DNA of 63,860 nt, filler included, from Perkinsus olseni (GCA_013115125.1; 3 parts of 3 records of this genome joined end to end with filler, not necessarily neighbours in it), one strand, 5' to 3'. Positions 22,163 to 61,700 are shown, numbered from the whole stretch's first letter. Notes: generated from the letters alone by a model not told the origin. Made by a program: numbers and translations.

Positions 22163-22399
22163 TCATCGTTGCACTCTGGTCCCTCCTTGGCTATGATAAC
22201 AAGGTCGGCCAAGTGAGATGATGTAGTAGACTGGCTCTCACTGGCTTTCACGTAAGGCGAAATATGAGCGAATGAAACCAAGCTATTGCAGGAACGTCTG
22301 AGCGTCGACCCTAACCACATCGAGCCCCGTTGCATCGAAGAGGGTGATAAAAAAACCACCGTTGGAGTCGAAATCACTGAACTACGGCGAGTGAATATA

Positions 22400-22481
22400 A
22401 TCCAGCGCCAGGATTCGAACCTGGATCTCCCGCTTGTTTAGTGAACGGTGCGAGTGTTCTGACCTTTTAGACTACGCCGGA
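22400..22481 (-). ncRNA. tRNA-like gene (Asp/Glu/Gly-like body) with 16-nt anticodon loop, copy 1
   Basis: Acceptor TCCGGCG/CGCTGGA, A-box-like TAGTCTAAAAGG, anticodon stem CTCGC/GCGGG, T arm CCAGG-TTCGAAT-CCTGG, loop ACCGTTCACTAAACAA. Confidence 0.7.
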
Positions 22482-22628
22482 GTTGCTTATTTGTTTCGAT
22501 CGCGGGGGTCCTCTGGTAACCCCAGCCTTGTGTGTGTCAGTGTAAAGCCCAACGCCGTCGCCGGCTTGATTTGACTTGATGCCGATGTGCTAGGAACTTA
22601 ACGATGAGCTCTCTGTTGCATTATCTAG

Positions 22629-23918: not shown

Positions 23919-23972
23919 TAACTGGTCAGTGTATGAAGGACACTTCCAAAGAATTAACGGCGGATAGATACG

Positions 23973-24054
23973 ATCCAGCGCCGGGATTCGAACCTGGATC
24001 TTGCGCTTGCTTAATGAGCGATGCGAGTGTTCTGACCTGTTAGACTACGCCGGA
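23973..24054 (-). ncRNA. tRNA-like gene with 16-nt anticodon loop, copy 2
   Basis: Same 81-nt cloverleaf as 22401-22481 with loop ATCGCTCATTAAGCAA. Anticodon stem and T stem each carry mismatches. Confidence 0.65.
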
Positions 24055-24595
24055 GTTAACTTCTAATACCGATCGTGGGAGTCCTTTCGTAAGACGCTTC
24101 TGCGAGCTAGCGCCAAAGTAACTCTTGTTGGGTCTTTTTCTTCTCGACTTATCACCAGAATCTTCGACTTCTTCCAAGCTCATCCTTGGCGCGCTGTTGA
24201 AGTGGACAAGATTCGCTTCGGTCAGTTCCTTTCCGACCACAAAATTTTCAATTTTCCCGTGCGCCCATCATAATGTCATTTGGGCCCTCGCGAGCGTAAA
24301 TGGGCGTTTGCGTCCCTACCAAGACAGGCCACTGTAAGCAGCTCAGTTTTTCGAAGAATGTTCTCCCCTCTTGCCTTGTCGCGCTTCATTTGCGGTCATC
24401 TGGATAGGACTTCTTGTTCTCCTCTAATCTCACTCAGAGAAGCAACCCAACAGTCAAATCGTCCAGAAAACAAGGGAGTCACCAATCAATCCTGCGGCTA
24501 GGCACAGACGCTAAAATGACGCTTATCGCCACGTGATTATTCTGCGACTTTAAAACGTGAGAGAAAAGGTGATGAGCAGTACAACAAAGGAATAC

Positions 24596-27500
24596 TCAAA
24601 GCTTGGCAGCGTGGATGAGCGTCTCACAGTCAACTTCCCATAGCAAGCTATGGCCAACATCAGGCAGAATGACTCGATCGCTCTCAATCGCCAGGGACAC
24701 CTTCATGTTGGAATACTTACTATCCAGAGCACCCGCGATGAATCGGTCCACCGGGACTTCCGAACAGTCAACACTCCAAGCCTGGCTCATCGCCAACATC
24801 GACTTGGCCCAGCCAGACGGGTTGGCGTCGCCAACTCGGGACGGTAACCACTGGCCGAAGAACTCCTCAGGTCTTCGGGTTGGCAAGTCGGCAAATACCG
24901 AGCCGGAGCCGTACCACTTGGTGAGGAAGAGGCCGAGGTCCAAGTTAGGGGACTCTAATTTCTCCGCCCATGCGCAGTCACTTCGCCAGCGCCTCTCCCT
25001 GATGGCCGGGCCTCCAACGGCTGTGCTGGCAGCGATGACGATAAGCCGGGTGATGTCACCGGGAGCGCGCCTCGCCCATTCTAGAGCTACTCGGCCACCT
25101 TGGGAATACCCACATACTGTTACTGGTTTATTGTTGAACAGGTCTTTGACCAGACCACGCAGGTTGGCGATGGTCGCCGACATGCCGTAGTCGAAGAGAG
25201 TGCTGCCCTCGGAAGCTTGCGAGCTGCCGTGCCCCGGAAGGCTGATCGAGAGAATGTCGTACTTGGCGGTGAGCTCCTCACAGGCCAGCCAGTCGGAGTA
25301 GGACTTGGCGCTTCCCATCCACCCATGCAACAGAACAAGGGGGGCCTTACCAGGACTACCGCCTCGGATGAAACTGATGAGACAAAGAGAGCTTCCGGAG
25401 AGCTGACCCATACTGTAGCGGCTTGCCTCAGCTTGACACCCGGGTGAAGGCGGAGGCTCTCTTCGACCACCTCGCCGACTGCCGCTGTGATCCGACGCCG
25501 AAGGGCAACGTCTTCATCCTGGCTCGTCTTGGGAACCTGAGCACCAGCACAGTTGAGCCATCGTTGACGACTGCTGGAGATCCAGAAATCAAGACTATGG
25601 TAGACCGGGGAGAGATCTTCCCTCCACACCCGATACGAAGGTAGAATGCCCGTATCAGCTCCCCCACTCACAATCTCAGTCAATCCACTGTGATCGAGGC
25701 TTTCAATCATCCCTGCCAAATCATCGACCTTCTTGCTTCCCTCTAGGCCCAGCATCTTAGCCGCTCCCGCAAAGGCCACTTGAGCGTTGGGAGTCCGGAA
25801 ATTCTCGTTGTATGCGACGTCCTCCGCGTATTTTCCGATGGGCACGAACTTGAACATGCTCCCACCGTTGTTGTTGCTAACCACGATCTTAACGGGGGGA
25901 ATCTTCACATCACCGACGATACCACCGCCGTTGAGGTAGTTGGCCAACCTGAGTAAGCGATGGACTCAGTGCGGGGGCTTCGTCCGGGGGGCCGCCTACT
26001 GGACGAGCGAGTTAAGGTCGTGGATAGCGGCTACGTCTCCGATGAGAAGGTTTGTTGCACGACCCAGGCCCACTGCGTATCCAACTGCCGTGCCTGTAAA
26101 AAACAAATGAGGTCGACCTGGCTCACAGTGTAGGATACGCTAAGGTGTCAACAGACCACCCATGAGCTGTCAAATTACTCCTCATCAGGGGAAGCTATGA
26201 CAACAGCGAAGTGTCCGAAAAGTGGTATTGTAAATAAGATATCATGACAGTGGCATTAGGAGACCTCTCTGCTGTTGGCAGAGTTCGAAGGTCTACGCCG
26301 CTCAGCGTGACGGCGGAAGCTGGGTTTCCACGACTGAACAGTCCGTGAGCGAGTGCTCTAACTAATCTTCATTTTTGTTGTAGATCTCCGGCAGGCGACT
26401 CCCCCCCTCTCCCCCCCCCCCACTTATCGTCCCATCGATTCCACTAACACCTCGACTACAGGACACTCGCGGGAGGTGAACTCCAAGGGGGCACTGAGGA
26501 TGAGGAGGACACCATCGTCTCGCAAGTCTTATCGTGGAGCAAACTGCCGCGCCGTTCGGGTGTATCACGTGGCGACACAAGACCCAACACACAAGGGCCC
26601 ATCCATGCACCCGAGCACAGCGGAGCGAAGCGCTTCAAGAACAAGCTCGTAACAAGCCCCCATGGCTCCATCCAGGATACAGGATATGCGTCCTTCACTC
26701 ACGAAAGTGTCGAAATTGCGGCAGCTCATGCTGCTGCTTATGACCATACCCTCCCTCCTCTTCGATGCAAAGTGAGCCAAAGACCGAGTGATATTCGGCT
26801 CAGTACCTACTCCCAACCATTGATAATAGCGATGATCGTTCTAGTGCGGCTGGAAGGCTTCCAAGGAGACGCTCCGTGACGCATGCAGCTATTCAAAATA
26901 TGGTATCAATAGACGACGCACCAACTCCACCCCCACAGCTTACATTCCTCCCCAAGCTCAGCCTGGATCCTCTTCTCCGCCCTACTGCTGATAGCGTGGA
27001 TACGATCCCTCAGCGACCGATTGGTCCTCAGTACCTGCGCGGACTACACGGTGACGAACGTGAACAGAGGAGGCACTGCGGCTCGTACAGCTGGATCCAG
27101 AGTGAGGTCATCGACCATCCGGGCGAACTCCGCGCAGGTCGCATCGACCACAATAGTGCCTGACAACTTCATCCGTACACCCACAGCGACCCATCCAGTG
27201 CAGGAGCAGGTGGATCGTCCCCACTCCTCGTAAGCAAGCCGCCGGGAGTGAACGAGCAAGCATAGTAGTAGCCGTGAAATGGAATGCGAGCCACTAATAC
27301 CAACTTTTTCGGAATTTCCAGCTCATGAAAGGCGACCTGGACCGCTGCCTACCGTTCCAGTCAACATCATGTCTCCGAGGCACGTCCATGACTCTGATGT
27401 GCTCCTTGACCTGCCACAGGTGGACAACTCTCCTGCAGCCTCAAGGCACCCCACTCGACTACCGGTCCCATCTTAGACGACATCCAAGCCTGCACTTGTT

Positions 27501-30500
27501 TCGATATCAATGCCCCACCTAGCCGGATGACTGTGGGGCGACTGAGCTGCAGCATGTCCAACACGGCTTGGGAGGATAGACAGAGGCTTGGCAGACACTC
27601 CCGACGGCACCCTGAAGGAAAATGCTACTCTACACTGCCACACCAAGAGTCATGGCCAACTAATGTCGGACCACATGTTTGATGATAATCCTTACGGAGG
27701 ACCTCTACTGACTATAGGGCTACGCCATCACTTCTCCGATCTATTCCGCTTGGACCGGTATTACTGGATAATTAGAACGTCACTCTTTGATACGATACAT
27801 AACATAACAATATACTTATGATAAGCATGCGTAAAGCATACGAGGACCCGCATGTACACTAGACCTAGGTCATCGATGATACTACTATTATGCACCTAAT
27901 CCAAGCATACAGACTCGACAGCCATAGCGCGATCCCACCCTCCTCCACCAGTGACTGATCATCCCAAGACATCCTCGAGACTCACCACTAACGGCATCAG
28001 CCAAGACAAGGCACTGGAGCTCCTCGGCCATAGCATCAACAGCAGCAGCATCCATAGGGGAGGACAGTGCGCCGACTACCAACACTACTGTACCCGAACC
28101 TGACCACTCACAGTCCCATGCAGCCCGAGGGCGGGGACACTCACTAATCAACTCCCTCACAGCATCGTCTTCAATGGCCCTCCTAGCCGGCCTAGCAACC
28201 CTGGTCAGAGGCTCCGTAGAGCGGAGTTGCCAGCGAGTAAATCGGGAATCTTCCGGTACACGGAAGGCGCTGACCTCGCCATACTGCCCTCCTCGAACCT
28301 ACACCGAAACTCAGCCCGCACCTTCCAAAGGATCGACCCACCGCCCCTCCTTCCGGTGCAAGATTCTCTCGGAACTGCATGTTCATGTGGACCTAAGCCC
28401 GGTACGTTCCACGACGGATCCCTGGTCAGCAGCCCCACTCACCACGCCGCTCTGCTCAAGACACTCGGCCACTGCGTAGTCGACGTCACTCAGGAGCGAT
28501 CGTATTGGGGCCGACTCGCAAGGGGGCGCTATATCACGGGTCCACACTGCGTAGGGCTTGAAGATATCTGTCTGATTCATCGTCTGATTGCTCCTAGAAA
28601 CGGCAACAGAACCGTCACGCGCCACGAAATTTCCCTCCGCGCATACCCAGTATCTCGCAGTTCTGACGGTCTGTCAGCCGTCAGCAGCAGCATTGGCACT
28701 CGGGACTCGTGAGCTTCCGTCACCGCCGGGAGGAGATTCGCCACAGCCGACCCTGAAGGAGGCCGACTCCAGCGTGGATGCAATAGCGCGCGCCCTACCG
28801 CTGGTCACGATGACCGGTGCTGGCAGCCCAGTCGCCTTAGCGTAACCCAGAGCATAGAAGGCTGCGCCACGTTCATCCGTATGGACCTGCAAAAGGTGAA
28901 ACAGAAAATGCTTCGCTCCGCTAAGGCCCCGTAGAGAGCCTAACGTACAACGTGTGTGGCCTGAGGGTGTTGTGTAACGGCTATGGTGAGCGGCGTCGAT
29001 CGGCTCCCCGGACACACGACCTGTGGATCGAGGCCAACCTTGTGGATGCGCGAAGATTCCCGGGAAAACTCACAAAGTGCTTTATACCGAGGCGGACTAG
29101 CTCGTCAACGAAAACGGCACACCAGAAGGTGTTGAAATTAGGGAACTCCATTGGCTCCTTCAGAGCAGGCCGTACACCTATCACAAAATACCAAATCACT
29201 TAACGCTTCGCTCCGCTATAAGCCGCCAGCCTACCATCGGACAGAGTGCCAACGAACTGGCGCATTTTGAGACATATTTCGTTCCACTCATCCTTAGGGA
29301 CAGAGCCCTCGATAAGGCCAGCACCGGCCATCACGTGCACCTGAGCTCACCGGATAAGACCATCAAAACCTGGAACGATATGGTCGTCCACCATTCACAG
29401 TACTGACTAGCAGAGCGAGGACTACGAGCAGGATATCCTCTATTCAGGAGCAGGAGCATTACCTTGGACCCGTGACGACGCTCGACCAGAGCACTTCTTA
29501 GAGACACCGCCAGCTCTCCTCCTCCAGATGACACTACCCCACATGGTGCGGCAAAGAACCCTGCACGCATGCGCACATGATACTACCACGGCCCCAACCC
29601 GAGCTGCTGACCTCGATCGAAAGGCTCTCTCGCCCTAATAAACGTCATGCCGTCCTTAAGAGGCTTGCCACCCACTGCGGGGGTCGGGTGTAGATCTTGT
29701 ACCAACCATTCGACAACATCGTGACCATTGTGCAAGGGCATCTCGTCATCTGATCACAACCATACCATACATCCACCGCATGTAGGGAAGGGTCCTCAAA
29801 GACAGCCTTCCCACGATAGGCGTTGACGTGCAATGTGACCCTCGCGGTCGTCAGACTCCCACGGTCGATCCCTCCTCCTCGACAAAAGCGTAACACTGCC
29901 GAAGGCTCAACAATACCGCGCGGATAATCCCCCAATTCGGTGTAAAGTAGCGTTGGCAAGGTGAAGCTGCAGATCCTCCCCAGCTGCTCACCATCTCTTG
30001 TACTGAGGTCATCCTGCTGATCGGACAGATCCACTGTCGCCTCCAGCATCTGCTTGCAGTGGACCAATTCCTTCAGTCTCAGAAGGTTCACCCCACTCAC
30101 ATGCACCTGCCGGTACCAATATCCCCAATGAGATTCCCTGTATGCGTTGAGAAATGGTAAGTGAGCAAGATTCAATCAACAATAGTAGCTTCTCCAGAGA
30201 GGACCTCCCATCCACCTCCTACATCGTGCGCTCTCCGAGTTAGTATACCCCGGATGTATTTAGTCACCGTACTATGCTCAGTGGTCCGCTTGAGGTCAGC
30301 CTGAGAAGATCCGAAGATTCGCACAGGAAAGATTCACAACACAAAAGGTAGGCCCGAGTGTCCACTGCCACCAAGCCGTCAGAAAGATACAGTCATCCAG
30401 CCACCCTCACCTCATCATTGGAAGTGATCTCCGAGGGCTTCCACGTGCCGGCCACTGCCTCTGTCTCGATGTGACCGCCTTTTACGCGGCATAGCCTCTC

Positions 30501-32665
30501 AGGAGTGATGCACACGAATGCACTCTCGCCACGAGGCGGCTCGATGTAGATCGTCTGTCAAGGATAGCAAAAGGTGAATGAAAAGGAATTACAAGATTGC
30601 AAGATTTCCCTCGAAGGTGGAGCATCAAAAGACCCGGCGAGACCCCTCCCATTTGAATGCAGTCGGTACAAGGATCCTCGAAGACCACCCCAAGTGGACA
30701 CATGATAGAAAACCCGAAAACCGAAAAATTTTCGGCAAAAACTCTGATCGAGAAATAACGGTGATGATGCTGCGGACAACGCAGTGCCAGGCGCCACCTA
30801 CAATATCTTCATCGTTGCGATCAAAACCAGAAAAGGGGAAAGTGAAAAGATTCACAAGTTCGATGGATTCCCGAGAGGCCCTATTACATAGCGCTTAGTG
30901 TCTGGTACCGCCTCTATGACTGTTATGAGCCAATCAATGGGGTCCATCGGGCAAGCACTGTCTTTAAAACTCAGTGTGGAACGAAGGGAAATTACCTAGG
31001 GAGGAGCCGCTGAACAGGAGGTGGCGCGAAGGAACGATCAACCTACAACTTTGTCCAGAGAGCCATTGCGGAATTTAGAAATTGCCGTATTAACTGTATC
31101 AGTGTACCTGACCGGCAGATTGGCGTAGTGGGTGAGCTGCCGGCGGCGGCCCCGAGATGGCTGAGTCTTCGAACCCGCGTTCAATTCGCAGTCGAGACAC
31201 CCCAGTACTACTGTTCAAGTGTATTAGCCGGTATTATATCGGACGCCAAAGGAGGCAGAGGGGCCGGACCGATAGTGAGATCGCTGAGCCTGCATGGCCA
31301 CTTGAAGGAGGCTATCATGGAGAGAGCTGAAAGTGACAGGCGATGAACATCCAGTCCTTGCACGTACAACCCAATCAACTTGAGCTAGGCCGACAGAAGG
31401 TTTCAGAAAGGGCATGACGAGCGGTCCATGACCACCAGTGGCCACCGGATAGTGAACCAAGTGTTCCAGTCCGGAGTACCACCAATCCCTCGTCTCCCTA
31501 ATACTACCATCGTCAGCTTCCCCCATAAGCAGCTTCCCCGTGCAACTGTCATATAGCAGATTCACCGATACCGTGTAAGTGGTATCGGGGAATACACCCG
31601 ATGATGCCACTTCGAGCCGAGGCAGCACCCAATACCTAGTCGATTACAATAGCCCTACCGCGGACTTCCAAAGGCTAGATATTACTCTTGAGAGGGGCCG
31701 CGGAAGAAGTCTCGCCACTCTGCCCCGACTGCCCTGTCCTCATCAAAACGACGCCCTGAAGAAGGGGGACAGCGCTACGGATACTGTTAATTTCACCAAG
31801 TCCGATGAGATCTATACACGCCGCGTGACTGCGTTTGGATCGGACAACTGAGAGGCTCTGTGGAACGGACTGCTGCTTCTCACTTTACAGTCCTTCACTA
31901 CAACTTTGGCGATAGAAAATCTCCATTTTATCGGGGGTTTTCGTCTCGAGGATTATCATAATACGCGTGGAAATTTCAGTTCGTCACATGGTGGTCAGAA
32001 ATGAAGGGAAAAGATACGCAGCCCGCCAACCAACCTCCAATGTAGTGGACTCTATCATCAGTGCCACACAGTAGCATAGCGTCCAGAGAAGAGGCTACAT
32101 AGGCCTGGCCCCAGCCGCCTAGGGCAAACGATCCATCGCGCGCCACGAAAAGGGAACCTGGAGGGAGGGAGAGTGGACGAGGGGAAGGAGATGGACGCTT
32201 ACGTGACTCCCTGCCGAAGCCTTGGAATCTGAGGAGCCTCAGGAAGAGCTTGGGCAGATGCTCGGCACTTTCCACAGGCAAAACAGTAGGGCACTCGATT
32301 CGAAGCACTCCTGAGAGTATCTTGCTATCATGCTAGCATCATACGGGTTAACCTACGACTTACTAGCATGAGTTTCGGATACTTTCGGTGACGAGGACTG
32401 GCCATAGTGCGATATCGCATCCATGACGTGCAGGCAGGCGACCTAAAGACACCCCATGGGGCAACAGAGCGGCTACCTCGTTAAGAGAAGTACCTCCGGA
32501 GAAGGGCAGAAGGGAAGGGTTAAGTGGGGGTCTACAACGTCCGAGCCCCCAAGGGCGGGAGGCGATGTGCTGCAGTCCGACTGACAGTAGGGCATGCCTA
32601 GGAACTGGAAACTGCTCCTCAGCAATGCGGAAAATTCTCTGCGGGTCACTCTGGGGATGTTTCAT
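24596..32665 (-). CDS. PHYLLO-like menaquinone/phylloquinone biosynthesis fusion: isochorismate synthase (MenF) - SEPHCHC synthase (MenD) - SHCHC synthase (MenH); multi-exon, start approximate
   Basis: Men[53 protein letters not shown]. Men[76 protein letters not shown]. Men[34 protein letters not shown]. Ends AKL*. Confidence 0.88.
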
Positions 32666-32691: not shown

Positions 32692-32745
32692 ACCCTGACC
32701 GCGGATCGAACCCGGGACCTTTTGAGTGATAGGGTGAAATGCAGA
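32692..32745 (-). pseudogene. tRNA 3'-half relic abutting MITE-like element 1
   Basis: Minus strand CTATCAC...AAGGTCCCGGGTTCGATCCGCGG (anticodon-loop-like, variable loop, T-loop/B-box). No 5' half. Confidence 0.5.
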
Positions 32746-32747
32746 AA

Positions 32748-33094
32748 CCTAAGGAGAAAGTATATTTTCTAAGGAAGAAATCTCGCTCGCCCGAAAATAC
32801 GCCGGCGCGTCGTGCGGCACGCGCGCGTACAAGACAGCGACTAAAGGTTACTTCGGCTGGTAGGCGTTAAAATAGAAAACCAAGACCTAGTGGAGTACCG
32901 ACCGTAACCCCCGTGAACCCGAAACCCGACTCAGGTCGCCCTTCGGGCGACCCTCACCAAAGACCCGAAGGCTGCGGTGTGTAAGAGGTGGGAGTTACGC
33001 GCGGGAAGCGCCCTTAGGAAGATGCAAAGGCTCCTTAGAAAAATGTCGAGGGCGAGCGAGATTTCTTCCTTAGAAAATATACTTTCTCCTTAGG
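32748..33094. mobile_element. MITE-like element 1, 347 bp, perfect 45-bp terminal inverted repeats
   Basis: 32748-32792 (CCTAAGGAGAAAGTATATTTTCTAAGGAAGAAATCTCGCTCGCCC) is the exact reverse complement of 33050-33094. AAA lies on both flanks (possible TSD). Confidence 0.85.
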
Positions 33095-33865: not shown

Positions 33866-36800
33866 ATGACAGGTCAATCGTGTAGTGGTTCACTGCGTTG
33901 CTTTAGGCCGTACTCTTCTCTGCTCCAGCCCTTAATCTAACGCCAGGATTCTCTCGAGGAACCCTTCATCTTGCCTTGTGGACCTCGACACCTGATTATT
34001 GTTATTGTGGCGTGGACTGGACTTCTCTTCTTAGTAGGGTCTCCCCTGCCCAAGTGGAATGGCAGGCTTATTTCCATCACGATGAATCTTCGGCCCCGTC
34101 TATAGAGACCTCACCCAATCGGCTTTACTCCTCCGCTCCGAGATCAGTAGGGAAGAGGGTGAGCGCCGCGTGCCGAGTAGTGGGTCGAGTCGCTTCGCTG
34201 GTCTGGCTGATTCATACTGGTGGCATTCGATGATGATCACCGCCTTGCCGTACAGTGCCGTGGCCCTCAGCGATCTTTTTGGGCTGCCTTTCAATGATCG
34301 GAGAGCTCGTCAAAGGCCTAGACTACTTCACTTGGGCTGTTCCAGCAGCTGGACCCGTCCGCTCGGCGTTCAGACCGGCCGATCCGTCGACAATGATGAA
34401 CTCAGAGCCGAGTCCATATCCTGATCCGGATAATACGGTGGGCCTTCAATCACCAGGTCTTTAGTTCGACCCTAGCATGTTGTATTTTTCATTCAGGAAG
34501 CTCCTGCAAAGTGTCGTACTGGGCAGTCGGCCCGCGGCGAGGGCCTGCCCTGGGCCCCCTCCGTTCGAACCCTCCACGATGTCTTCACTCACGCCGTCAA
34601 GAGGTAACTTATCGTCCCTATCAATAAGTCAATCACCGTGTCCAACCTCAGCCATCCTAACTCCAAATGCCAAGGCACCAGAGACCTTCTTCGTTTTGTG
34701 GACATGGGCCAACCCTTGCCCGGCAAAGAGTTCGGCAAGACCACATGGCGTAGGTTCATCTAACCCTTCTGATGAAACCTTTATGATAAGCTCAGGTACC
34801 TATCGCCAGGTCAACAGGCGGGTGTTGGCTATTGGAGCGGGCCTGCGTTCACTTGGCAACTGCCCCCAGCCCGATCATGTCACTGACGTGGACTCCTTGG
34901 TAAGTTGCATGCTAGCCCCATAGCAATCGCCATTGGCTTCTCCTCAGACCGGACCTATCTCCCTTGTTATCTTTGAGGACACTTGTGCAGAGTGGATCAC
35001 AGCTGCCCTTGGGGCGTGGTCACAGAGCATGATCGTTACAACGATCTACGGTAGGCTTCCACGGTGGCAGCTTCATGCGTGATGAGTATGGCGGAGTCCA
35101 ACCTCAGGGACCCTGGGTCCGGACGCTGTCGCCCAAGCCTTCGTGGAGGGCCAAGGGACTACTCTTCTATGCAACAGGAAAAACGTAAGCTTCTCGATCG
35201 CTTGTCGGCGCTTCTGTTGACGTCCCTAACTGTCCAGGTAGCTGGGGTCATCGCAGCTCGGGATACGATGCCCTCTTTAAGGCATATCATCTACACTGAT
35301 GAGGGTGTTGATAAGAAGGAAAGGATGAAGCCTCTGCAGTTGGCAGGTGGGCCTAGACGTTCAAGGGAGTCATTCTGGAAGGGTAGCCTCAGATACACAC
35401 GGCATCGAGGTGATCAGATTTGAAGATCTCCTCCGTCGAGGTCAGAGCCTTGTGAAGGAGTATCCACCGGTACCGCCTAAGAAGGACAACATCGCCACCA
35501 TCATGTACACATCAGGTAGGCCGACGGCCGATGGGTCGGCATGCTGCTGTCACCGTCACAGGTACCACTGGCCACCCTAAGGGTGTTGTCATAAGACATC
35601 GCCACGCTGTCTTCGCCATCCGCTCAATACTGCCGCTCGTCCTGGATCGTCTCCCGTCCAACTTCACTCACGTCGCGTAAGACAGCAGCCTCCTTTCAGC
35701 TGCCACAAGGCGTCTCCTCCCAGGTACCTGCCGCTGGCTCATATCTTTGAGTTGGCTGTCCAACTTGGCTGCCTTAGTACTGGTGCCAGCATCGGATTCG
35801 CAGACCCTAGTGGGTTCCCTTGCTCCTGCTGTTGTGGAGGTGTTCCCCTTCTTCAGAGAGCCTCACAGCCACTCTCACCAAGCCTCACGGCGCGTTGGAG
35901 GAGTTCAAGCCCCACATGTTCATCGGAGTCCCTAAGATTTATGACGTTATTATGAAGGGAGCTCTCGCCAAAATCGCAGCGGAGCCACGTAAGGATGTAC
36001 TCTGCTGGCTTTTTGGACCAGTTGCATCGGCTCTTCAGCGACCAAGAGAGGCCTCATCAATGCTGCGTTTGAGTCCAAGGCTAAGGCCATCGAAAGTCAT
36101 ACCCGACGCAGGCGATGTGTCAGACACGAGTTGTCCATCAGGTGGTAGATTTACCCCTATCTTCGACCGTTTGGTATTCTCCAAGTTCAAGGCCCTCCTC
36201 GGCGGCCGCATCAGGTGAGCTCTTCCAACCCATTTATGTGGCTATTAGCTTAATCCGCAGGATCTGCATATCTGGTGGAGGTCCGCTGTCGGGGGATGTC
36301 CAAAGATGGGTCAGAACAGCGTTCGGCTGCGACGTTATCCAAGGCTATGGTCTTACGGAGACCAACGCGAGTGCCACCATTCAACTGTGAGACATTCCCG
36401 ACAGCCGCCAGCGTGAGGTATTGCATCTCTTCAGGATGGGCGATCTCCGAACGGGTGTAGTGGGCCCGCCGATCCCTGGAGTTGAGATCAAACTTCGGTC
36501 GTGCCTTGACGCCAAGGGGGAACCGGAGATCCTGGACCGCCATGGGAAGCCCTACCTTTCGAAGGACACACGAGCAGCCAACGGCAAGCGTGTTCTCGGT
36601 AGGCCCCGCGCCCGGCTGTTGGTGCTAGTACGTATTGGTACGGGAGTTTAGGTCGAGGAGAGGTTCTCATTCGTGGGCCATGTGTAACCAGTGGATACTA
36701 TAAGTTGCCTGAGAAGACTGAGGAAGCGTAAGCCAGGCTGACAAATGTTTAGCGGAGCGAAGCTGACCTTCGCGTAGGTTCAAGTCGAATGGGTGGTTCT

Positions 36801-37666
36801 ATTCTGGTGATGTTGGCCAGTTCCTGGCTGACGGCAGTCTACAGCTGATCGATCGAGTTAAGAACTTGGTAAAGCTACGAGGAGGCGAGTAGGTACCTTC
36901 GCTGCCTTCCTCGTGTAACCTCGTCTACTCTCGTAGTGGTTCGTTGAGCCCAATGGCTTACTCTCGCCATATTGACCGTCCGATGGGAGGCATTCTCTGC
37001 ACAAGTGATGCTGTAGTGTGCTATTGGCAGGTACATCGCCCTCGAGAATATGGAACTAGTGTACGGCAGTTCGGCCTTTGTGGACGCCGTCAATGGTGGC
37101 ATCATGTGCTACGGTGATGGTGAGTGATCATGCTGATGATGAGGGCCCCGCCGTGCTTCCCATCGCAAGAGACGGTGTGGTCAGGTACTCTGGATAGACC
37201 GGTGGCGATGGTGCAAGTGAACAAGGAGAACCTGGTGAACTGGGCTAAGTCCAACAACGTCCAATACAGCAGCTACGAAGAGCTGCTGAGGAAGCCCGAG
37301 GCCAATAAGGCGGTAAGCTCTGTCCGATGGATCGCGTATCTCGTTGGTTGATATCAAGTACCCTAGCTGACTGTATTATTATCATCATTATATATGCCCG
37401 TGTAAACTCCCCTCCTTGCAGGTTCTGGATTCCCTGCGGAAGTGCTGGAAAGTTGGTAAGCTGTCGCCTCTCGAGCAACTGTGTGCTATAGTATTGCTCA
37501 ACGATCCGTGGACGCCGGAGAACAAGTAGGACGCCTGCTGCCTCCCTGCTCACTCCAACCCTCATTTGACAGGTGTTTGACCGCCACCAATAAGCTTTCA
37601 CGTCACGGTATCATCGCAAAGCACGAGGAACTGTTAGAAAATCTGAAGGCGTTCGGACGAGAGTAG
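33866..37666 (+). CDS. Long-chain fatty acyl-CoA synthetase (AMP-binding, LACS/ACSL type), multi-exon; start approximate
   Basis: [98 protein letters not shown]. Confidence 0.9.
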
Positions 37667-39100
37667 GCCACCGTGAGCGACTCCCTCCCATCACCGGTCT
37701 TGGTCTTCCTTCAGTCCATCGATGCCGATGTCGATCCCGACGACCTCGACCTCTTTCTCGAGAGCCAAGCTGTGAGGCTCGCGAGAGGATCGTGGAGGTG
37801 TCTCTTTACGTCGAGCTGGGATTTGTTTCAAGTGGCGGTAATTTCTTAAAGAGAAGGCATTTTTATGACTCCGAGGATCGCTGTTGTGTTCTCATGCTAG
37901 AGTTCCCTGACGACTCGTCAGTGACGAGAGTACGGTCGAAAGTAAGCGTACGCAAGTGGGACAGCTCGGCGGTCACATTCCTCTTGATCGTTTGCATCGT
38001 CGCACTCTAGACACAGAATGACGTTCAAGAGAGGTCTCCGAAGCACAACCGACGAGAACATGGCACATACTGGTTGTATAGTTGCAACGCTCGAGGTTTT
38101 GATATCCGAGGCGAGTCGAATCACGGGGAAAGGAGAGATGACGCAATCGAGGCGTTGTTGAAGGTGCCATTGTGATGAACAAGCCAAAAACCCAAGCAGG
38201 TCTGTCGTTCGCAGTGAACCACTCTTATTCAAGCCACGGCTAAAGCACACGTGAGGTCGTCAAGGGGTAGGGTATAGCGGGAGTCTTTCGTCACGGTCTT
38301 AGTGTTTCCTCGTGTTGTTCCATTCGAAGGCTTCACATCGTATGGTTGTGTTATCACCGTCGCGGCGCCTCGAGGACGGGCAAGTTCATCGTACTGCTAC
38401 ATCACCACGAAAGGGGAGGCCAAAGACGGACAGACTTGTGAGACGTTTGTCACAGTCCTCTCATCGAACGTGAAGATACCAAGTACATCTGTCGGAACGC
38501 ATGGCCCCTGGCTGGCTCATCAAACCACTCGGACGTTTCACCCGCGGTGCACCATGGTTCAGAACTATCGAGCACTCAGCTACTTCCGTCGGGATGAACT
38601 CCACAATATAGTAATGCGTATTGGCCATCGAACTGGAGCCGTATAGAGCGATATACGGGCTCCGAGCACCCAGGACGGGCTCTTCGTAGCTTCATCAGGC
38701 CTACTGGCGATCACCAAGAAAGGAGTCGCCGCGCCCTAGGAGTGCCCGTGTGGCTTCCCCTCTCGATCTGGACTTTGGCAGGGAGTGGTTGATGAGACGT
38801 ACTCACTGACACAGTTGCATGCGCCTCATCTCTCTACCAGGTGATGCTGAAATCTCCCGGAAGATGATCGACGCGGAGCGGCGGGCCATGGCCGAATGCG
38901 TAGGAGGCGGTCACAGCACTGACCAAGATGACCGCGAGTTGGGCCGCGATCCTAGCACTTTTAAGGCGTCGAAACCGCAGTGCTCTCGGACTTCTTAGAG
39001 CTCCTTCTGGCGTCAAAAGCGTCGTTGACTGATCGGACTCGCTAGAACGAGAGGAGCTCGATTTCCGCTTCGAGGATCGCGCCGATTGAGGGTTGTTGAA

Positions 39101-49598: not shown

Positions 49599-51428
49599 AT
49601 GAAAGGATTTCAACTCCTCGTTGCTGTCGTAATTGCTCTTGTCCCGGCAGGTGGAGTTCTTGATAAACAGGCCATCGATGAAGCTTTCGAGAAGTTCATC
49701 AGAAAGTAGCAACTGAGCTCGTGAGCGGCGTACTGGGTACTGCGTGGATTCCACACTGGAAAGTCTATGCGACGAATCGTCTCATCGCCCGGCAGTCATA
49801 AGTAGCCCTACAGATACAATAAGAAGTATACCTCTACAGAAGAGCGTGCGAAGCGTCGTGGCTTCTTCGCTGCGACACTCGCGCAGGTCTTTGCTGCCAA
49901 TCAGGAGCGTCTCGATATACTTGGTGAGGAACTTGGGAGCCGCATATGAGAAAGTAGTTGCTGCTTAGTGCACTGCTGTGCGAGTTATTATCACGGGGTA
50001 CCTACTGCCCATTGTTGTTGTCGACGAAGTTGGATTCAGCTGGATCTGCCTCCTACCTCTGCCAGCGTCATCTCGCAGTTTCAGGAAATGGGTCAGACTA
50101 TGTGGCCGGCATAAACTCCTTCGCTGACTTCTCGACGGCAGAGTTCGAAGCGAAAATGCTGTGCGGCTATAATCCATCGATATCAGAGTCATCCTCGCCA
50201 AGGAATCAAAGTGGTACGAATCCTACCGGCTAACCGGTACTGAATCGTAGATGACTAATAGGTACTCATCGCACAGCTCGATGAGCAATGGATAGTCTCA
50301 TCATGTCATTTTCGTGTGTAGGTATCCCGTATACACTCGGCCACACTGAATCGATTAGGCTCCCTGAAACGGTGGACTGGGTTGCCGCTGGAGCGGTTGG
50401 GCCACCAAGAGATCAGCGCACGTGTGGCTGCTGCTACGCCATGCAAGTGGCAAGTGATACCAACGGTTGCGTAGTGCTTAGTTACGCAGCTCGCCTCCCT
50501 ATTCAGCCGTGGCTGAGAGCCATTTCCAGATCCGGACAGGTATCCATCCAATGATACCATTTTCTGTTCAACAACTCGTGGACTGTTCCAAATCAACCGG
50601 CAACAAGTGAGTGCAAAGTTGTGAAATAATGACTATCTAACGGTCTTCAACTGCCTTCCAGAGGCTGCACGAGCGGATCGCAACGCTTCGCATGGACTTA
50701 CGTTAAGTCCAGTGGTATGGTGAAGGAGAGTGTATACCCGTTCATCGCGAAAGACGGGAAGTGCAAAAGCTCTATCGTCGGGTCTGCAGCTAATCAATGC
50801 TTGGCGGTAGGATAGGGATTGCCCTCGGAGCCCACTAGCTTACATCGCTTTCACGATGTTCCTGTCAGCCCGGAGATATTGAAGGGTGGTTTGGTGTTTT
50901 GCCTCGGAGCGACGATGCCCTTATGCACAAGCTAGCCATGTACGGACCAGTCCCCGTCTCTGTTCATGGTTCAAGCGCTCGATTTCGCAACTACCGATTT
51001 GGCGTTATGACACGTAAGCTCATGTCGTTCTCGTGAACTTTCATTAATATCATTCTGCAGCACAAGAGTGCGGAGAAGGAAATCTAAATCACGGAATAAT
51101 AGTTGTCGGGTACGGCAAGACTCCTAAAGGGGTTGAGTAAGTCTTCTTATTTCACAGCGGACTTCCCTTGAGAGGCTTCGCATTGTTCATCCTTGATCAG
51201 GTATTGGAAGGTTATCAATAGCTGGGGTACCTCATGGGGAGATAAGGGCATCGGTTACATCCAACGAAACACTGAAGGATATCCTAGAGGTGCTCAAAGA
51301 TACCCACACACGTAAACATATTCGATATTCGTTCAACTCATTCAGGGCCATGCGGTATCCTCCAAGCCCCAGGACTTGTCCCAGAGCTCAGGAACGATAT
51401 GAAGGCAACAGCTTGTAGAGAGAGATAG
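49599..51428 (+). CDS. Papain-family (C1A, cathepsin L-like) cysteine protease with signal peptide and I29 prodomain, multi-exon
   Basis: MKGFQLLVAVVIALV, AFEKF, EERAKRRGFF, GINSFADFS, VDW...DQRTCGCCYA, SVQQLVDC, LNHGIIVVGYG, YWKVINSWGTSWG, CGI. TAG at 51426-51428. Confidence 0.9.
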
Positions 51429-55700: not shown

Positions 55701-58700
55701 GAGTCACCGGCGCGATAGACTTCTGCGCGGCAGTGGCTGCAGAAGAGGAGGGCACGAGCTCACTCGAAAAGCTGATCCTTTCGCCGCTCACATGATTCCA
55801 TTTCTGTTCTCGCCTGAAGCTGCGCGACGCACTCAGGTTGCGTCTCATCCGACCCGTCAGCACAATCGCGGACTTCATCACAGTAAAAGACATCCTCGAT
55901 ACACTCGCCAGACCCGCACTTGAACTGCGTGTCTTTACAAAGCGCTCCCGGCGCCGGAGTAGCGAAGACGCAGCTGACGAAACTCTGTCGACTATGCACG
56001 AGACATGCAGCCCTACTTTCTTTCATCAGCCGCCAGCGTCTCGCCAGGCTCGATGACCTCACATTCTGGAATCTGGTTGCAAACGAATCTCTCGTCTATG
56101 CAGGTGCCGGTGATCGGACACTTGAACTTTGGCGACAGACACAACTGCTCGATAGCATCGCGGACCTATCGAGCCACGTACGAGCCTGTGCCGGCGACGC
56201 TCCTACTTGCGGGTCGGCGAGGCCTAGGAAGCTCATAGGCGGCAAGTTGGGAACGGAGGCGCTGAGGGAGTTCAGCAGAGTGGTCTGCTTGGAAGTATCC
56301 GAGTTGAGGCTTTCAAGGCTGTCAGCCACGGCAGAGGCTTCAGCAGCCGCAGCGGCCTCGCGCTCGGCCAGCGTACCAGTGGTGGTACCACTCTCGACGG
56401 TAAACTACGAAAGAACAAATGACAACTGCGAAAAGATAACACGGTCACCTCGAAGTTGACGGCACTGCTGCTAGCTCCACTGGATTGGAGCATTCTGGGA
56501 GAGGGCGTTGTACTAGTGGTAGTCCGAGGCTGGACGGCTGCTGTCGGTGCCGGAGTTGTCGTTGCGACCTGTCCATAGAGGTCCACTCCGTGCAGGGTCG
56601 GACGGAACTCACCGAGGTGGACTCAACCATGATAATTCCATTCATCACAATTGAATCCTTATTCATGCTCTCCCTCCCCAGCAGCTCCAGCAGTGCTGCC
56701 TTGAAGCCTCCCTCGAACGCAGCCAAGGCCTCGGGGTCCTCCTTCAACCCTGTGAGGTCGCCGCCGAGCAGGAGCCGCGACATCATCTTTTTCACGGGGT
56801 TCCGCTCTGTCTCGCTTATCAGGCTCTCAGCTGCGGCAAGTCTCTGCAGCCCTCCCTTCGCATCGCAACGCGCCCTCACGGATTCCCACGCAGTGCGGTG
56901 CTCCGCTGTTCCGAGATTCCTCCTCACTGCCGCGCGCTCCTCAAGATTCTTCATGCCCTTTAGCGTCATAGCCTCGCGGAAGGTGTCACAGCTTTCCAAA
57001 GTGGCACGGTCTTCCTGCAGGATACCTCCGAGGTCGTCGAAGCACTCACAAGGCAGGGAGCCGGTGAGAAGGAAAGTCTCGCAGCGCAGAGAAGAATAGC
57101 GAAGGATCTCGGCATCCCTAGCCGTGCATGACTTCGCGCTTTGCATCCTCTGGAAGTTCTCACAGTACTCTCGTCCCCACGACAAGAGAGAATATCCAGA
57201 GGAGATCAGGTCCGGCCTGTATGTCGACCCATCACACTGGAAGGCCTTGGACGCCACCTCGTCGGCAGAAACCCTGTCAGCCACGCAGCACGGGTTCACG
57301 TCGAACGTGCAAGCCTCTCCATACCGCACGAAAAGGAAATCATCAACAACATTAACGTCACACACGGGCAGGTTCCGCAAAGCGTCTTTCTCTTGTCTCA
57401 GGAACACACAGGTCTCATGACTGGCATAAACCTCATCTCCACACTCTTGGCAGCCACCTTGCCGTAGATCCTTAGCGATACAGAGACCCGTCGCCGGACA
57501 CCGCACTTCGCTGTCGAGACACTGGTAGCTGCAGCTCATCTCATCGTCACCGTTGGGGCAGAGCCATTCTCGATCACAGCGCTGGGATGCATCGTAGCAT
57601 CGCCTGTCAGGATCGTTCACACACGCTGTTTGAGTGGAGAGGCAGTTGGTCGCGGAAATGGAGACCTCGACCGCGCCGAAGGTGTCAATTCTATCATGTG
57701 AATCGCAGCCCTCCCGGACTTTCCCATCCGTCCGGATCGACTTGACCCCTCCATAGAGCTGGCTGCCAGCAGCAGCCAGAACCTCCGAGGCAGCCCCAAT
57801 CTGGTCCTTCACACAAGATACTCTCGCAGGTCCGGCACAAGCTCGAAGCTTCAGTTTCACCTTCGCCTGGGTGATCGTCGCCTCGTCTTGTCTCGGCAGT
57901 CCCTTTATCGCGTCCGCTAGATTGTTCGTGCCGCACTCGAATGAGCCATCGCTCGCCGTCCCCGAGGAGGTCGTATCCTGCATCTCTCTGCCGTACACCC
58001 TGTGGCTCGCTAGACGCCTCGGCGGCAGTGTCTCAGGCTCCGAGACTGTTTCTTCACCCTCCTTGAAGGGCGGCATCGTTGTAGACAACGGCATTCCCAC
58101 TGGCCCCACACTCTCGTCAAGATGTAATGGGTCTTCCATCAGTGGCGGTGGTGGGCTCGTCCACACGCCGTAACCAGGCGGAGAACCACCCCCGGGCAGG
58201 GTAGTGATCAGTGGATCCTCCAGGCCTATCGGCGCTGTTCCAGGCAAAACCACTTCCCCAGGCTCCATCGAGGAACCCTCATCGTCTGGGGGACCCTCAA
58301 TTCCGACGAGGAAAACATTCTGGACAGAGTCGCCGAACGCATCGCGGAGGTTCCTCGCGATGCCCTGCACTTGGAAGTATCCCTCAATCTCAAATTCTAT
58401 GCTTCGCGACGTTAAAGTTGCGGTTGGTTGGTAGTCGACCGGGCCGTCCAGGGGACAGACAGGGAGACCTCCACCGTCATCAAACTCGAGTTCTACCAGC
58501 CCTCCGAGAAGCTCGCCGCCATGCTCGCGCATGAGAGCCCGGGCTTCCTCCACCTTCTTCGTCAAGCACTCCATCTGCTGTGCCGTACCACACACGACGA
58601 CTCTCGTTTCGCGGAACTGCCGCTCGCTTGATACCGTCTCTTCAGACACGACCGGGAGCGACTTGAGGCTCTCGGCAAGAGCAGACACCTCACACTCGGA

Positions 58701-61700
58701 CACTTGTAGCCTGCGGGGCAGTCCACTACCGCCGCTCGACGCATCCTCTGCTGTACTTGGCTCGTTTGTCAAACCAGGCAAGACGTCACCAGGGGCCGGT
58801 GATTGATGGTTAGTATCATCCCACTCGGGCGGAGGGGTGTGGAACTCATCATACTGCACAGTCCCTTCCATGGCAGGCACATGAGTGAAGGGCGTGCTGT
58901 GACCTTCCACCTGCATCCGCAGATCCCCAAAGGCCGCTTCGAACGCCGCCGACATCTCCTCGTCGAGGTAGTAGCCGGTCAGAATGATGACGCGGGCGCC
59001 ATCCTGCTGCACAGGAGTTACGTCCGGGATGTCATAATCCCCATCCGGGTGCTCGTCCTCAGGATACGGATAGTAGTTGGGATCCTCGTGGCCGCTGAGA
59101 AGAGGACAGCCTTCCTGCACCCCAGGGGACACCACACGACCACCGGAGAGTCCTCCAAGCAACGAGCCAGCGGGCAGCTCTCGAGACTTGTTGAAAGTGT
59201 GCCGCAGTTGGGATAAGATGCATCTTATCCTCTCAGGGGCACCACAGGCCGTGACGATGTGCTCATTGTGAGCTCGGTTCATCGCTTTCGCCTCGGCCTC
59301 GCTATTGAGACCCAGCCCTTCGATCGCACGAGTCAGAGCGTCCACCGGGCAGTCTCCAGAACCGCTACTCTGGGTCCCAGCTGGCTCTTCCGTCGGGGTC
59401 GTCTCACCCTCAGATTCCTCCTTGGAAGGGTAGAAAGGCTCAGCGTGCGACAGTACATCTTCGCCTGTTACACGTCGGATGACTTCTCCTAGTTCATCAA
59501 TATCATGGTAGCCCCTGAGCACCCAAGAGACGCTCTCCAACGGCTGGTCACCGAACGACGGGGGGATGTCCGGACCATGGGTCACCGGACAGCCCTCTTC
59601 CACTTGTCCCAGCGGCGCGATGAGCTCGACTCCGCCATGCCCGTCCGAGGAGCCCGCAATCAGGTCATGTGCTCCCAAGAGCATCTGCCTGATGCATGCG
59701 ATTCTCCCCTTATCGCCACAAATCGTGACCTCGGCTTTCTTGCGCTCGCCCGCATTCCCAGCGCCCTTAGGAAGAGCTTGCAGGAGATCAGCCAGAGCGT
59801 TCTGGTCACACTGCCCATCAACAGTCCCATCATCGGGCGAGCTGTTCTCTGGGGTGGGATACGCGGTCCCATCGCCCGCCGGCAGAAGACGAGCATCCAT
59901 AAAAACGTCTTCACCAAAGGCCTTGTGCAGCAGGTTCTTTACCACTTCCTCTTCCCAGGACCCAAGCACGACCATCTTGACATTGCTGCTGTCTCCAGTG
60001 AATTCCGGATAGTGATCCCCATCTCCTGGATGATACCCACCCTCATCCTCGTGAGGGCAGCCCTCCTCCGCCGGCCCAGTAATATCAATGCCCTCAAGAC
60101 CCGCGTACAGGTTAGCCGTCGAGGAGTCCCGAAGCATGGCAGCCGCTCGTTCCAGCTGCTTCGTCACACAGTCGCTCCACATGGAACACACCACCACTTC
60201 ATACTCCATGTAAGGCCAGCGAGCCTCCGCCTCGCTCTTCGTGATGATAGCAAGATTCATGAGCGCGTTCTGTAACGCGTTCTCGTCACACTGGGAATTC
60301 TCAGTGTCACCAGTCAAGAGGCGGCGCCCGCCCCCGATGGGCGAGCTTCTCATCCTCGCAAAGTGTCCCATAGCCCCCTCGAAGGCCCTAGCAATAGCCT
60401 CTTCATCCATGTTGCCCCTCACCACGAACTTCTGGCTCATCACACCCTCCGGCCACCCTGGGAAGTCGTCGTAGCCACCCTCGGGAGCACCGCCCGGGCA
60501 CCCATCACGAATGCCCTCAATGACGTTCATTCTTGCAATGCCACCGTACAGTTTCCCACCAGAGTTCACCACGAGGTCCGCTGCACGGCGGAGGCGGTCC
60601 ACAAGGCAGTCCACTTCCTCCGCCGCCACACAGGCCACCACTTTCATGTGCAGCCGCTTGTGAGTTGCTTTGAAGTCATCCTCACTGCCACGATCCAGCC
60701 CTCCCAAAGCACGGCTCAAAGACTCTGCAGTACACTCCGTAGGAGCAGCTTCTCCCTCAGACGAGACTGGAGCCTCCTCGCTATCACGGATATCTTCAAG
60801 GTGACCCTCCACAGCGACAGCGTGCATCCACACGGCCGGACCGAGCCCCAGGTCGAAGGCGTGCTTCACAGCAGCCTGATCCATATACCCTTCAAGCTCG
60901 AACTCGACATGTATCATGTTCATGCTCGGATACTCGATGCTGCCCTCCAAATGGCACCCCTCAGTCAGTGGCGACTCAACAGTCAGGCTGTTAATGCCGC
61001 CCTCACCTCGCAAACCATCGCTTGCGATTTTCAATTGCTCGCTGATGCATTTCATGACAACCTCTGGGCCGCACACAGTAATGCGGACATCAGCAGGCTT
61101 GTAAGCAGCGGCGTCTGTCGGAGACCCCAGCTCTCTGAGGGAATCTAGCAACTCTTTCGCTTGACACTGGAAGTTACTTAAGTCCATCAGCGGCTCATGC
61201 GACGCCATCTCTTCCTTCACAACGTCTTCCGAGGGCTCCCCATAAGTGAATTGACTCTCCATGTGTACGAACGGACCGAAGACCCTCTCCAGGACCCCTC
61301 GGACACCCAGCTGGTCCATCTCTCCCTGTAGCGAAAACGCGAGGTTCATCGGCTGCTCGGCGAAATCCTCCGGAGGATAGGTATAATAATACGTATCATT
61401 GAAACCGGGCATCGGATAGGTTGGATCCCCGGGGTAGGGAGTGTGTTCCCCCGGGTAAGGTTCCTTAACGTCTGACATGGTTGGACAACCGTCCATGACG
61501 CCGTCTTCCACCACGACCTCCTCGATGCCCCCGAAAAGCCCCTGGGAAGCCCGGACGGCCTCGCTGGCGAGCTTAAGCTGCCTCCCAGCGCACTCAATCA
61601 CCTCCGCTGGGCCACAGCCAACGAGCTTAATTTCCGTGAACTTGTCCGTAGGGGCGTTGCCACTGAGACTTGCCAGCGAATCAACAATACCCTTCTCCTC

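Follow-up and report, generated by a model that had tools for sequence, protein, structure and literature searches.

A stretch of Perkinsus olseni DNA of 63,860 nucleotides, filler included (referred to below as the window), carries on its minus strand, from 32665 to 24596, a gene for a predicted protein, MenFDH, in which MenF, MenD and MenH modules follow one another. With moderate confidence, we regard MenFDH as the P. olseni homologue of the algal PHYLLO protein, a trifunctional enzyme encoded by one nuclear gene and trimmed of its MenC module that would serve steps towards the vitamin-K naphthoquinone ring. MenF, MenD and MenH catalyse steps 1-3 of the classical Men route to this ring, and PHYLLO is normally tied to photosystem I; Perkinsus is a non-photosynthetic parasite with a genome-less relic plastid.

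The window has a G+C content of ~52%, and its predicted proteins are nearly identical to Perkinsus olseni database entries, which agrees with the non-photosynthetic alveolate that a preliminary description had proposed as the source. Along 77% of its length, the open reading frame (ORF) bearing MenH, at 24599-25513 (-), has 100% identity to P0001 ('hypothetical protein FOZ61_006018, partial [Perkinsus olseni]', 1295 amino acids), and it also matches P0002 (FOZ62_022742, 842 amino acids). The MenFDH protein has been deposited only as such a partial 'hypothetical protein'.

The MenFDH gene and its three modules

The gene model was obtained by spliced protein-to-genome alignment of P0001 and P0002; the 5' exons were placed from splice phases and then checked with a family profile of 1846 positions built from 20 relatives with the module order MenF-MenD-MenH-MenC (F-D-H-C; other orders are abbreviated likewise). 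The model has 31 exons and a coding sequence of 4281 nt for 1426 amino acids, with the start codon ATG at 32665 and the stop codon TGA at 24598-24596, which is the sole stop. These two codons coincide exactly with the limits that had been given for the gene at the outset. Exons 1-8 lie at 32665-32494, 32310-32203, 32157-32035, 31755-31686, 31635-31368, 31160-31050, 30995-30888 and 30554-30411 (-), and exons 9-16 at 30300-30223, 30106-29992, 29749-29612, 29560-29463, 29340-29235, 29177-29074, 29020-28949 and 28886-28799 (-). They are followed by exons 17-24 at 28752-28647, 28593-28443, 28392-28342, 28298-28145, 28099-27986, 27611-27463, 27410-27353 and 27159-27089 (-), and by exons 25-31 at 27034-26944, 26806-26703, 26493-26424, 26093-26000, 25948-25672, 25536-25427 and 25373-24596 (-). 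The introns are 43-374 nt long, and 29 of the 30 are of the GT-AG type, the remaining one being GC-AG.

Residues 56-1418 of the model align with profile positions 53-1404 of 1846 with a score of 1135 bits, and the alignment takes in the newly modelled N-terminal MenF region. The same profile matches 20 window ORFs, all on the minus strand between 32332 and 24599 and collinear with positions 85-1404. P0002, an allelic or isolate variant, is 96.3% identical to the model over 842 amino acids without gaps and was a better guide than P0001 for the C-terminal half of MenD and the D/H junction; the SRGVSGIDG motif is encoded by two exons that it supplied, 26806-26703 and 26493-26424. The fragment P0120 shares 74% identity with MenFDH and keeps the thiamine diphosphate (ThDP) motifs of MenD. 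Neither P0001 nor P0002 holds the 5' exons. Exon 1 (32494..32665, minus strand) encodes 57 amino acids from the first ATG of its ORF; its phase-1 donor at 32494/32493 is compatible with the phase-1 acceptor at 32311/32310. A spliced alignment of E. coli MenF under loose penalties was overfitted, yielding 22 tiny exons, and was dropped.

Residues 1-200 of P0001 are a retroelement segment, with a gag zinc knuckle and an aspartic-protease-like part, joined to mid-MenF. This segment has no counterpart in the 333-nt intron 30887-30555 of the window, and P0001 also skips the first strand of MenH. P0001 stems from another assembly, and its N-terminus probably reflects either wrong joining in the gene model or the insertion of a retroelement in another haplotype.

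The MenF (isochorismate synthase) module occupies 29235..32310 (-), exons 2-13, and is full length, including the C-terminal chorismate-binding part. The MenD module occupies 25672..29177 (-), exons 14-29, and corresponds to the ThDP-dependent 2-succinyl-5-enolpyruvyl-6-hydroxy-3-cyclohexene-1-carboxylate (SEPHCHC) synthase. The MenH module at 24599..25373 (-), in the last exon, corresponds to the 2-succinyl-6-hydroxy-2,4-cyclohexadiene-1-carboxylate (SHCHC) synthase of the alpha/beta hydrolase type. Pfam scans covered 39 minus-strand ORFs and then 178 further ORFs of at least 85 amino acids, giving 217 translations, plus 58 short ORFs. Matches were found in 5 of the 39 minus-strand ORFs: Chorismate_bind at 30396-30557 and 29586-29753 (-), TPP_enzyme_N at 28580-28804 and 28677-29069 (-), and alpha/beta hydrolase at 24599-25513 (-), the 305-residue terminal ORF (E 1.9e-15).

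Isochorismate synthase was the top NCBIfam family for the MenF part, and isochorismate synthases of the PDB match P0002. For MenD, the NCBIfam equivalog TIGR00173 (menD) scored 357.4 bits on P0002, above its cut-off of 244.2, and full-length PDB matches were obtained with the MenD of B. subtilis (3.4e-58) and E. coli (~1e-53). The top NCBIfam family for MenH was TIGR03695 (menH_SHCHC; E 1.2e-30), and the top PDB matches were S. aureus MenH (7.7e-15) and E. coli MenH (1.7e-12). These data, together with the collinear profile matches, bear out the earlier proposal of MenF, MenD and MenH in order in one intron-rich gene.

Conserved residues were compared in an alignment of the model with the E. 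coli K-12 men-locus proteins and nine relatives. All seven MenF sites are kept, K190, E240, E284, A344, R387 and E416 being identical and L255 conservatively replaced by V, as in six of the nine relatives. All ten MenD sites (S32, R33, E55, R107, Q118, R395, R413, D442, N469 and G471) and all eight MenH sites (Y85, S86, R90, R124, W147, R168, D210 and H232, i.e. the Ser-Asp-His triad and five further residues) are likewise kept. MenD position 299 had been considered as a site, but it is Ala in E. coli and was left out of the count. Passages of PMC2914249 and PMC3097144 describe what EcMenD Glu55, the MenH triad residues and EcMenH Trp147 do. The predicted MenFDH protein is thereby confirmed to comprise intact MenF, MenD and MenH modules in this order, and it is presumably active as an enzyme.

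The missing MenC module and the C-terminus

The homology to MenD ends at ~25672, and MenH starts at 25373. Between them lies a linker exon at 25427..25536 (-) of 110 nt, encoding ~37 amino acids, followed by the 53-nt GC-AG intron 25426-25374. The linker would be ~82 amino acids if the 135-nt intron 25671-25537 were retained. Either length is far below that of the MenC modules of relatives (350-470 amino acids), and the claim that MenD and MenH leave no room for MenC thus stands. The start of MenH had been put at ~25367, which is roughly right, and the end of MenD at ~25490, which is somewhat off.

Searches for men genes covered the 63.9-kb window, the remaining genome being outside their scope. 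A MenC profile made from 54 MenC modules gave a best E value of 0.74 over 2098 window ORFs of at least 20 amino acids, as compared with 6.9e-52 for the E. coli MenC control. The family profile found nothing in the window for its positions 1405-1846, although it detected F, D and H exons down to 18 amino acids. Pfam MR_MLE or MenC_N had no match in the 217 window translations scanned (the 58 short ORFs not counted), and neither the 24.6 kb that follow the MenFDH stop nor the rest of the window contains a MenC-like ORF. No other men genes were found in the window; E. coli MenB, MenC and MenE gave chance matches only in tblastn against it, with E values of at least 0.13. A relic intron leading towards MenC, with the stop codon inside a GTGAGT donor, was also considered, but the bases read CTT TGA GTA and the motif is absent.

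The tight D-H junction is the ancestral state of the lineage, because the closest relatives have MenC after MenH. The true peculiarity of the predicted protein is therefore that it stops right after MenH, i.e. that a C-terminal and not an internal MenC is absent.

The protein ends in LIHAAKL followed by TGA, 17 residues past the catalytic His of MenH. P0001 shares this C-terminus. The last three codons and the stop, read directly from the sequence at 24596..24607 (-), specify Ala-Lys-Leu, a tripeptide of the peroxisomal targeting signal type 1 (PTS1). According to passages of PMC5755239, the PTS1 consensus is (S/A/C)(K/R/H)(L/M), and P. olseni has a full peroxin set including Pex5. The -AKL end agrees with this consensus; hence MenFDH is presumably imported into peroxisomes. 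The signal had not been noted in the preliminary description. Among 246 collected proteins, a canonical PTS1 end was found in four, namely MenFDH and three Perkinsus orthologues of the neighbouring acyl-CoA synthetase (see below); no other PHYLLO-like protein of this set has an end of this type. As to a plastid-targeting presequence of the kind known from plants and algae, hydropathy showed no obvious signal peptide and no clear hydrophobic core at the N-terminus, where exon 1 is tentative: the top Kyte-Doolittle mean over nine residues is 1.7 in residues 1-60 (at 52-60, spanning the exon 1/2 junction) and 1.4 in exon 1 alone (at 26-34).

It is highly improbable that the fusion is an artefact of the gene model, such that the modules belong to separate adjacent genes or the transcript runs on into unmodelled MenC exons. 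P0001 and P0002, on which the model is based, are partial and mutually discordant, many in-frame donor and acceptor pairs are possible at the D/H junction, and pieces of Guillardia PHYLLO have been annotated as separate neighbouring genes, as stated in a passage of PMC9244630. However, the adopted D/H junction is the same in P0002 and P0121, and the F/D and D/H junctions fall in short introns and short linkers with no stop, start or intergenic space. The same fusions occur in relatives, the unrelated P0015 of 1425 amino acids has the same F-D-H layout, and the stop directly follows the last MenH residues. A tRNA-like element (23973-24054) lies ~540 nt downstream of that stop, and the lack of any MenC-like ORF beyond it also speaks against a continuing transcript. 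MenFDH is thus probably produced from a single transcript as a single polypeptide, judging from a model with an open frame at all junctions.

Relatives and possible role

Module orders were determined for 113 collected proteins, including 110 matches to residues 201-1295 of P0001. F-D-H-C was found in 32 of them, including those of Euglena gracilis, Cyclotella and Triparma and the top-scoring matches, and F-D-C-H in 35, which belong to the green lineage. Many others, including those of red algae, are F-D, and three are F-D-H: two Perkinsus proteins and P0015. P0002 was also searched against 1.84 billion representative sequences, and the best 150 of 19611 hits provided 127 new proteins, classed as D only (64), F-D (27), F-D-H-C (21), F-D-C-H (7), D-H (4), F-D-C (3) and F-D-H (1). 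The sole F-D-H member of this set is P0125, a fragment of 916 amino acids, and no further complete F-D-H protein was found among these best 150. Three matches, P0167, P0212 and P0243 (811-867 amino acids), are two-module MenD-MenH fusions with neither MenF nor MenC.

Trees of the F and D regions were rooted with E. coli MenF and MenD and calculated with FastTree (94 rows) and IQ-TREE (LG+G4, quick, 35 rows). In the FastTree tree, the window protein fell in a 16-row clade (support 99) nested in one of 24 rows (support 100). The two are made up of F-D-H-C and F-D proteins, that of Euglena gracilis among them, and are apart from a 39-row green F-D-C-H clade (support 99). IQ-TREE agreed, with SH-like approximate likelihood ratio support of 99 and 100 for the two clades and 98 for the green clade. 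On these grounds, the predicted Perkinsus protein is placed as a descendant of the eukaryotic PHYLLO clade. The comparison made at the outset, which took the plant F-D-C-H form of PHYLLO as its reference, needs correction, as the closest relatives by sequence and tree are F-D-H-C. P0015 is sister to the F-D-H-C protein P0007, in a different subclade from Perkinsus; thus, it would have lost MenC independently, two changes being required for the F-D-H state. In the PHYLLO family, modules are often lost or split off, as shown by F-D and D-H-C forms. The simplest reading is that the terminal MenC was lost or split off from an F-D-H-C ancestor.

By the reading favoured here, an F-D-H-C PHYLLO ancestor would have lost or separated its C-terminal MenC (o-succinylbenzoate synthase), leaving a protein that ends at the natural end of MenH. 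MenF would isomerise chorismate to isochorismate, MenD, with ThDP and Mg2+, would add 2-oxoglutarate to give SEPHCHC, and MenH would eliminate pyruvate from the latter to give SHCHC. A passage of PMC3712967 lists an accession for a chorismate synthase of P. marinus, and the substrate is therefore plausibly available. The later steps (MenE, MenB and the thioesterase DHNAT) are peroxisomal in plants, according to a passage of PMC6189191. A separate MenC and the later enzymes are presumed to be present in P. olseni, and a naphthoquinone to be actually made.

Several observations weigh against this reading. The isochorismate synthase family scored 152 bits on the partial P0001, below the NCBI bacterial cut-off of 224.75, and the MenH family 106.8 bits, below that of 208.55. 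In the gene model, exon 1 is tentative and has no homology support, the profile alignment beginning at residue 56, and the exact D/H splice is ambiguous. The window protein sits on a long branch (0.93-1.16 changes per column), and among named relatives a euglenid, not an alveolate, is closest to it; hence, the history of the lineage is unclear. MenC, MenE, MenB, MenA and MenG were not seen within this window, and we know of no use for the product SHCHC without MenC. The C-terminal tripeptide by itself is no proof of import. Finally, the literature searched (titles, abstracts and passages, supplements aside) holds no report of naphthoquinone synthesis in Perkinsus, and none was found that pairs Perkinsus with isochorismate.

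Some of these points would equally suit a relic from a photosynthetic ancestor, in which loss of MenC broke the pathway and left an F-D-H protein with no role or with isochorismate supply as its only one. Perkinsus has no photosystem I to serve, MenC was not found in the window nor other men genes nearby, and quinones of the vitamin-K type in Perkinsus were not met in the literature searched. Such a relic nevertheless seems unlikely. The 4281 nt over 31 exons are free of premature stops and frameshifts, and all MenD and MenH catalytic and binding sites checked are kept in addition to those of MenF. The variants are 96% identical and gapless, and even the 74%-identical P0120 retains the MenD motifs. 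Moreover, the non-photosynthetic Euglena longa retains PHYLLO, MenA and MenG and makes hydroxyphylloquinone, as reported in passages of PMC7580956.

The derivation of MenFDH from an F-D-H-C PHYLLO may be carried further to propose that Perkinsus still makes a vitamin-K-type naphthoquinone. Its first three steps would have become peroxisomal when shedding of MenC exposed the PTS1, separate MenC, MenE and MenB would act in the same compartment, and the product would have a non-photosynthetic redox role, e.g. in electron transport at low oxygen, within the host's tissue or sediment. We put this forward tentatively, as a possibility that falls well short of probable. An active enzyme that makes SHCHC, or o-succinylbenzoate by means of a non-homologous or promiscuous dehydratase, for a product neither respiratory nor photosynthetic (e.g. 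a naphthoquinone of specialised metabolism, or a metabolite with a redox or defence function) is still less expected, and we give it little credence. It would account for three intact modules without MenC and for a peroxisomal signal suggestive of a rewired location, and many specialised 1,4-naphthoquinones are made by this route in plants, according to PMC5030760. On the other hand, nothing in the window indicates such a product, no alternative dehydratase was identified, and the proposal is pure inference.

Since module loss and fission are common in the family, the interest of MenFDH rests on the host organism and the PTS1. Passages of PMC7580956 present Euglena longa as the first non-photosynthetic plastid-bearing protist reported to keep vitamin K synthesis. 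An intact PHYLLO derivative with a peroxisomal signal would extend this case to alveolate parasites, would show trimming and re-targeting of multi-enzyme fusions after loss of photosynthesis, and would provide a concrete gene for asking whether such parasites make naphthoquinones. If the peroxisomal naphthoquinone proposal were true, MenFDH would offer the first access at the gene level to how a myzozoan parasite synthesises naphthoquinones, and it would be relevant to the reports, still unresolved, of phylloquinone and menaquinone from Plasmodium. Animals, to our knowledge, have no Men pathway. In principle, MenFDH might thus be targeted selectively in this mollusc pathogen, which does commercial damage; such a use is premature as long as the pathway has not been demonstrated and found to be essential.

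Flanking genes and comparison with known systems

A long-chain acyl-CoA synthetase gene of 22 exons, encoding 758 amino acids, lies head-to-head with MenFDH at 34294..37775 (+), the divergent start codons being ~1.6 kb apart. In a spliced alignment, 749 of its 758 residues are identical to those of P0115, the P. olseni 'long-chain-fatty-acid--CoA ligase 3', and its C-terminus is SRAKL followed by TGA. The orthologues of P. marinus and P. chesapeaki end in -AKL as well, and both genes of the pair look peroxisomal from their predicted C-termini. This AMP-binding gene was considered as a candidate MenE and rejected: the best family for P0115 was long-chain-fatty-acid-CoA ligase (174.9 bits), and TIGR01923 (menE) reached 98.8 bits, below its cut-off of 330. 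The synthetase is taken as context and not as a demonstrated member of the pathway. In the intergenic region that separates the two start codons, there is a perfect 45-nt inverted repeat, 32748-32792 / 33050-33094, whose arms are 257 nt apart; it may represent a small foldback element or a hairpin with a regulatory role.

A 136-nt direct repeat of 80% identity, 22384-22519 and 23957-24092 (-), lies a short way downstream of the MenFDH gene. Each copy holds a tRNA or tRNA-like element: one has a tRNA-Ala(CGC) at 22400-22481, and the other matches the Rfam tRNA family with 30.7 bits at 23973-24054. The tRNA-like GGTTCGA strings near 32700 and 31170 were called by neither ARAGORN nor Rfam.

Elsewhere in the window, the 178 further ORFs gave Pfam matches solely to AMP-binding, Peptidase_C1, a weak RING finger and LDL-receptor-A. 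The Peptidase_C1 match (E 9.6e-06) is an exon at 50285-50551 (+) that encodes the beginning of a cysteine protease domain of the papain family. An uninterrupted ORF of 2034 amino acids at 56448-62549 (-) has no Pfam match. It contains ~13 tandem 11-residue units of the PPPPTGEYYDS type near the N-terminus, followed by about ten repeats of a module of ~130-150 amino acids and a Cys-rich tail, and has the appearance of a large repeat protein that is secreted or exposed at the surface. Just downstream of it, at 55763-56095 (-), is an exon of the LDL-receptor class A type.

Among known systems, the E. coli menFDHBCE operon (L001) has the gene order menF-menD-menH, which is the module order of the Perkinsus protein, and the catalytic residues are common to both. 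The E. coli proteins are separate, menB and menC come next in the operon, and local identities to the Perkinsus modules are ~27-33%.

The PHYLLO of plants and green algae was described by Gross et al. in 2006, as cited in PMC6189191 and PMC9244630. Unlike the Perkinsus protein, it has the order F-D-C-H, with MenC between MenD and MenH, and belongs to a different clade; it is plastid-targeted and serves photosystem I. The land-plant models P0104, P0106 and P0109 are D-C-H, the MenF module being missing or not detected, and plants have lost active MenF. This PHYLLO shares with the Perkinsus protein the character of a multifunctional early-Men fusion of bacterial origin in a plastid-bearing lineage.

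Euglena longa, as described in passages of PMC7580956, offers the case of a secondarily non-photosynthetic protist that keeps the early vitamin K pathway, with a PHYLLO that is apparently cytosolic and not plastid-targeted. In contrast to what is known of Perkinsus, that PHYLLO covers four steps, including MenC, and both the enzymes MenA and MenG and the quinone itself have been detected, the latter by measurement.

P0015 (1425 amino acids; 11 member sequences, 5 contigs) is F-D-H like the Perkinsus protein, has a near-equal length and ends two residues past the MenH domain. It differs in sharing 30% identity and in lacking a PTS1, its C-terminus being RLLA, and it may be truncated.

The F-D-H-C PHYLLO proteins of Euglena gracilis (P0013), the diatom Cyclotella (P0004 and P0040) and Triparma, and many further marine eukaryote sequences such as P0007-P0012, have the same MenF-MenD-MenH order with short linkers, an order that is mentioned, with MenC last, for a cryptophyte in a passage of PMC9244630. 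The diatom proteins P0004 and P0040 carry an extra polyketide-cyclase or START-like domain (PF03364, PF10604) after MenC, in the C-terminal ~150 amino acids, which would be a fifth module and of which no description was met. The F-D-H-C proteins share 30-42% identity with the Perkinsus protein over nearly its whole length, fall with it in one clade on the trees of the F and D regions, and likewise have a full-length MenF module with its catalytic residues. They add a MenC of 350-470 amino acids after MenH, at the place where the Perkinsus protein ends in -AKL.

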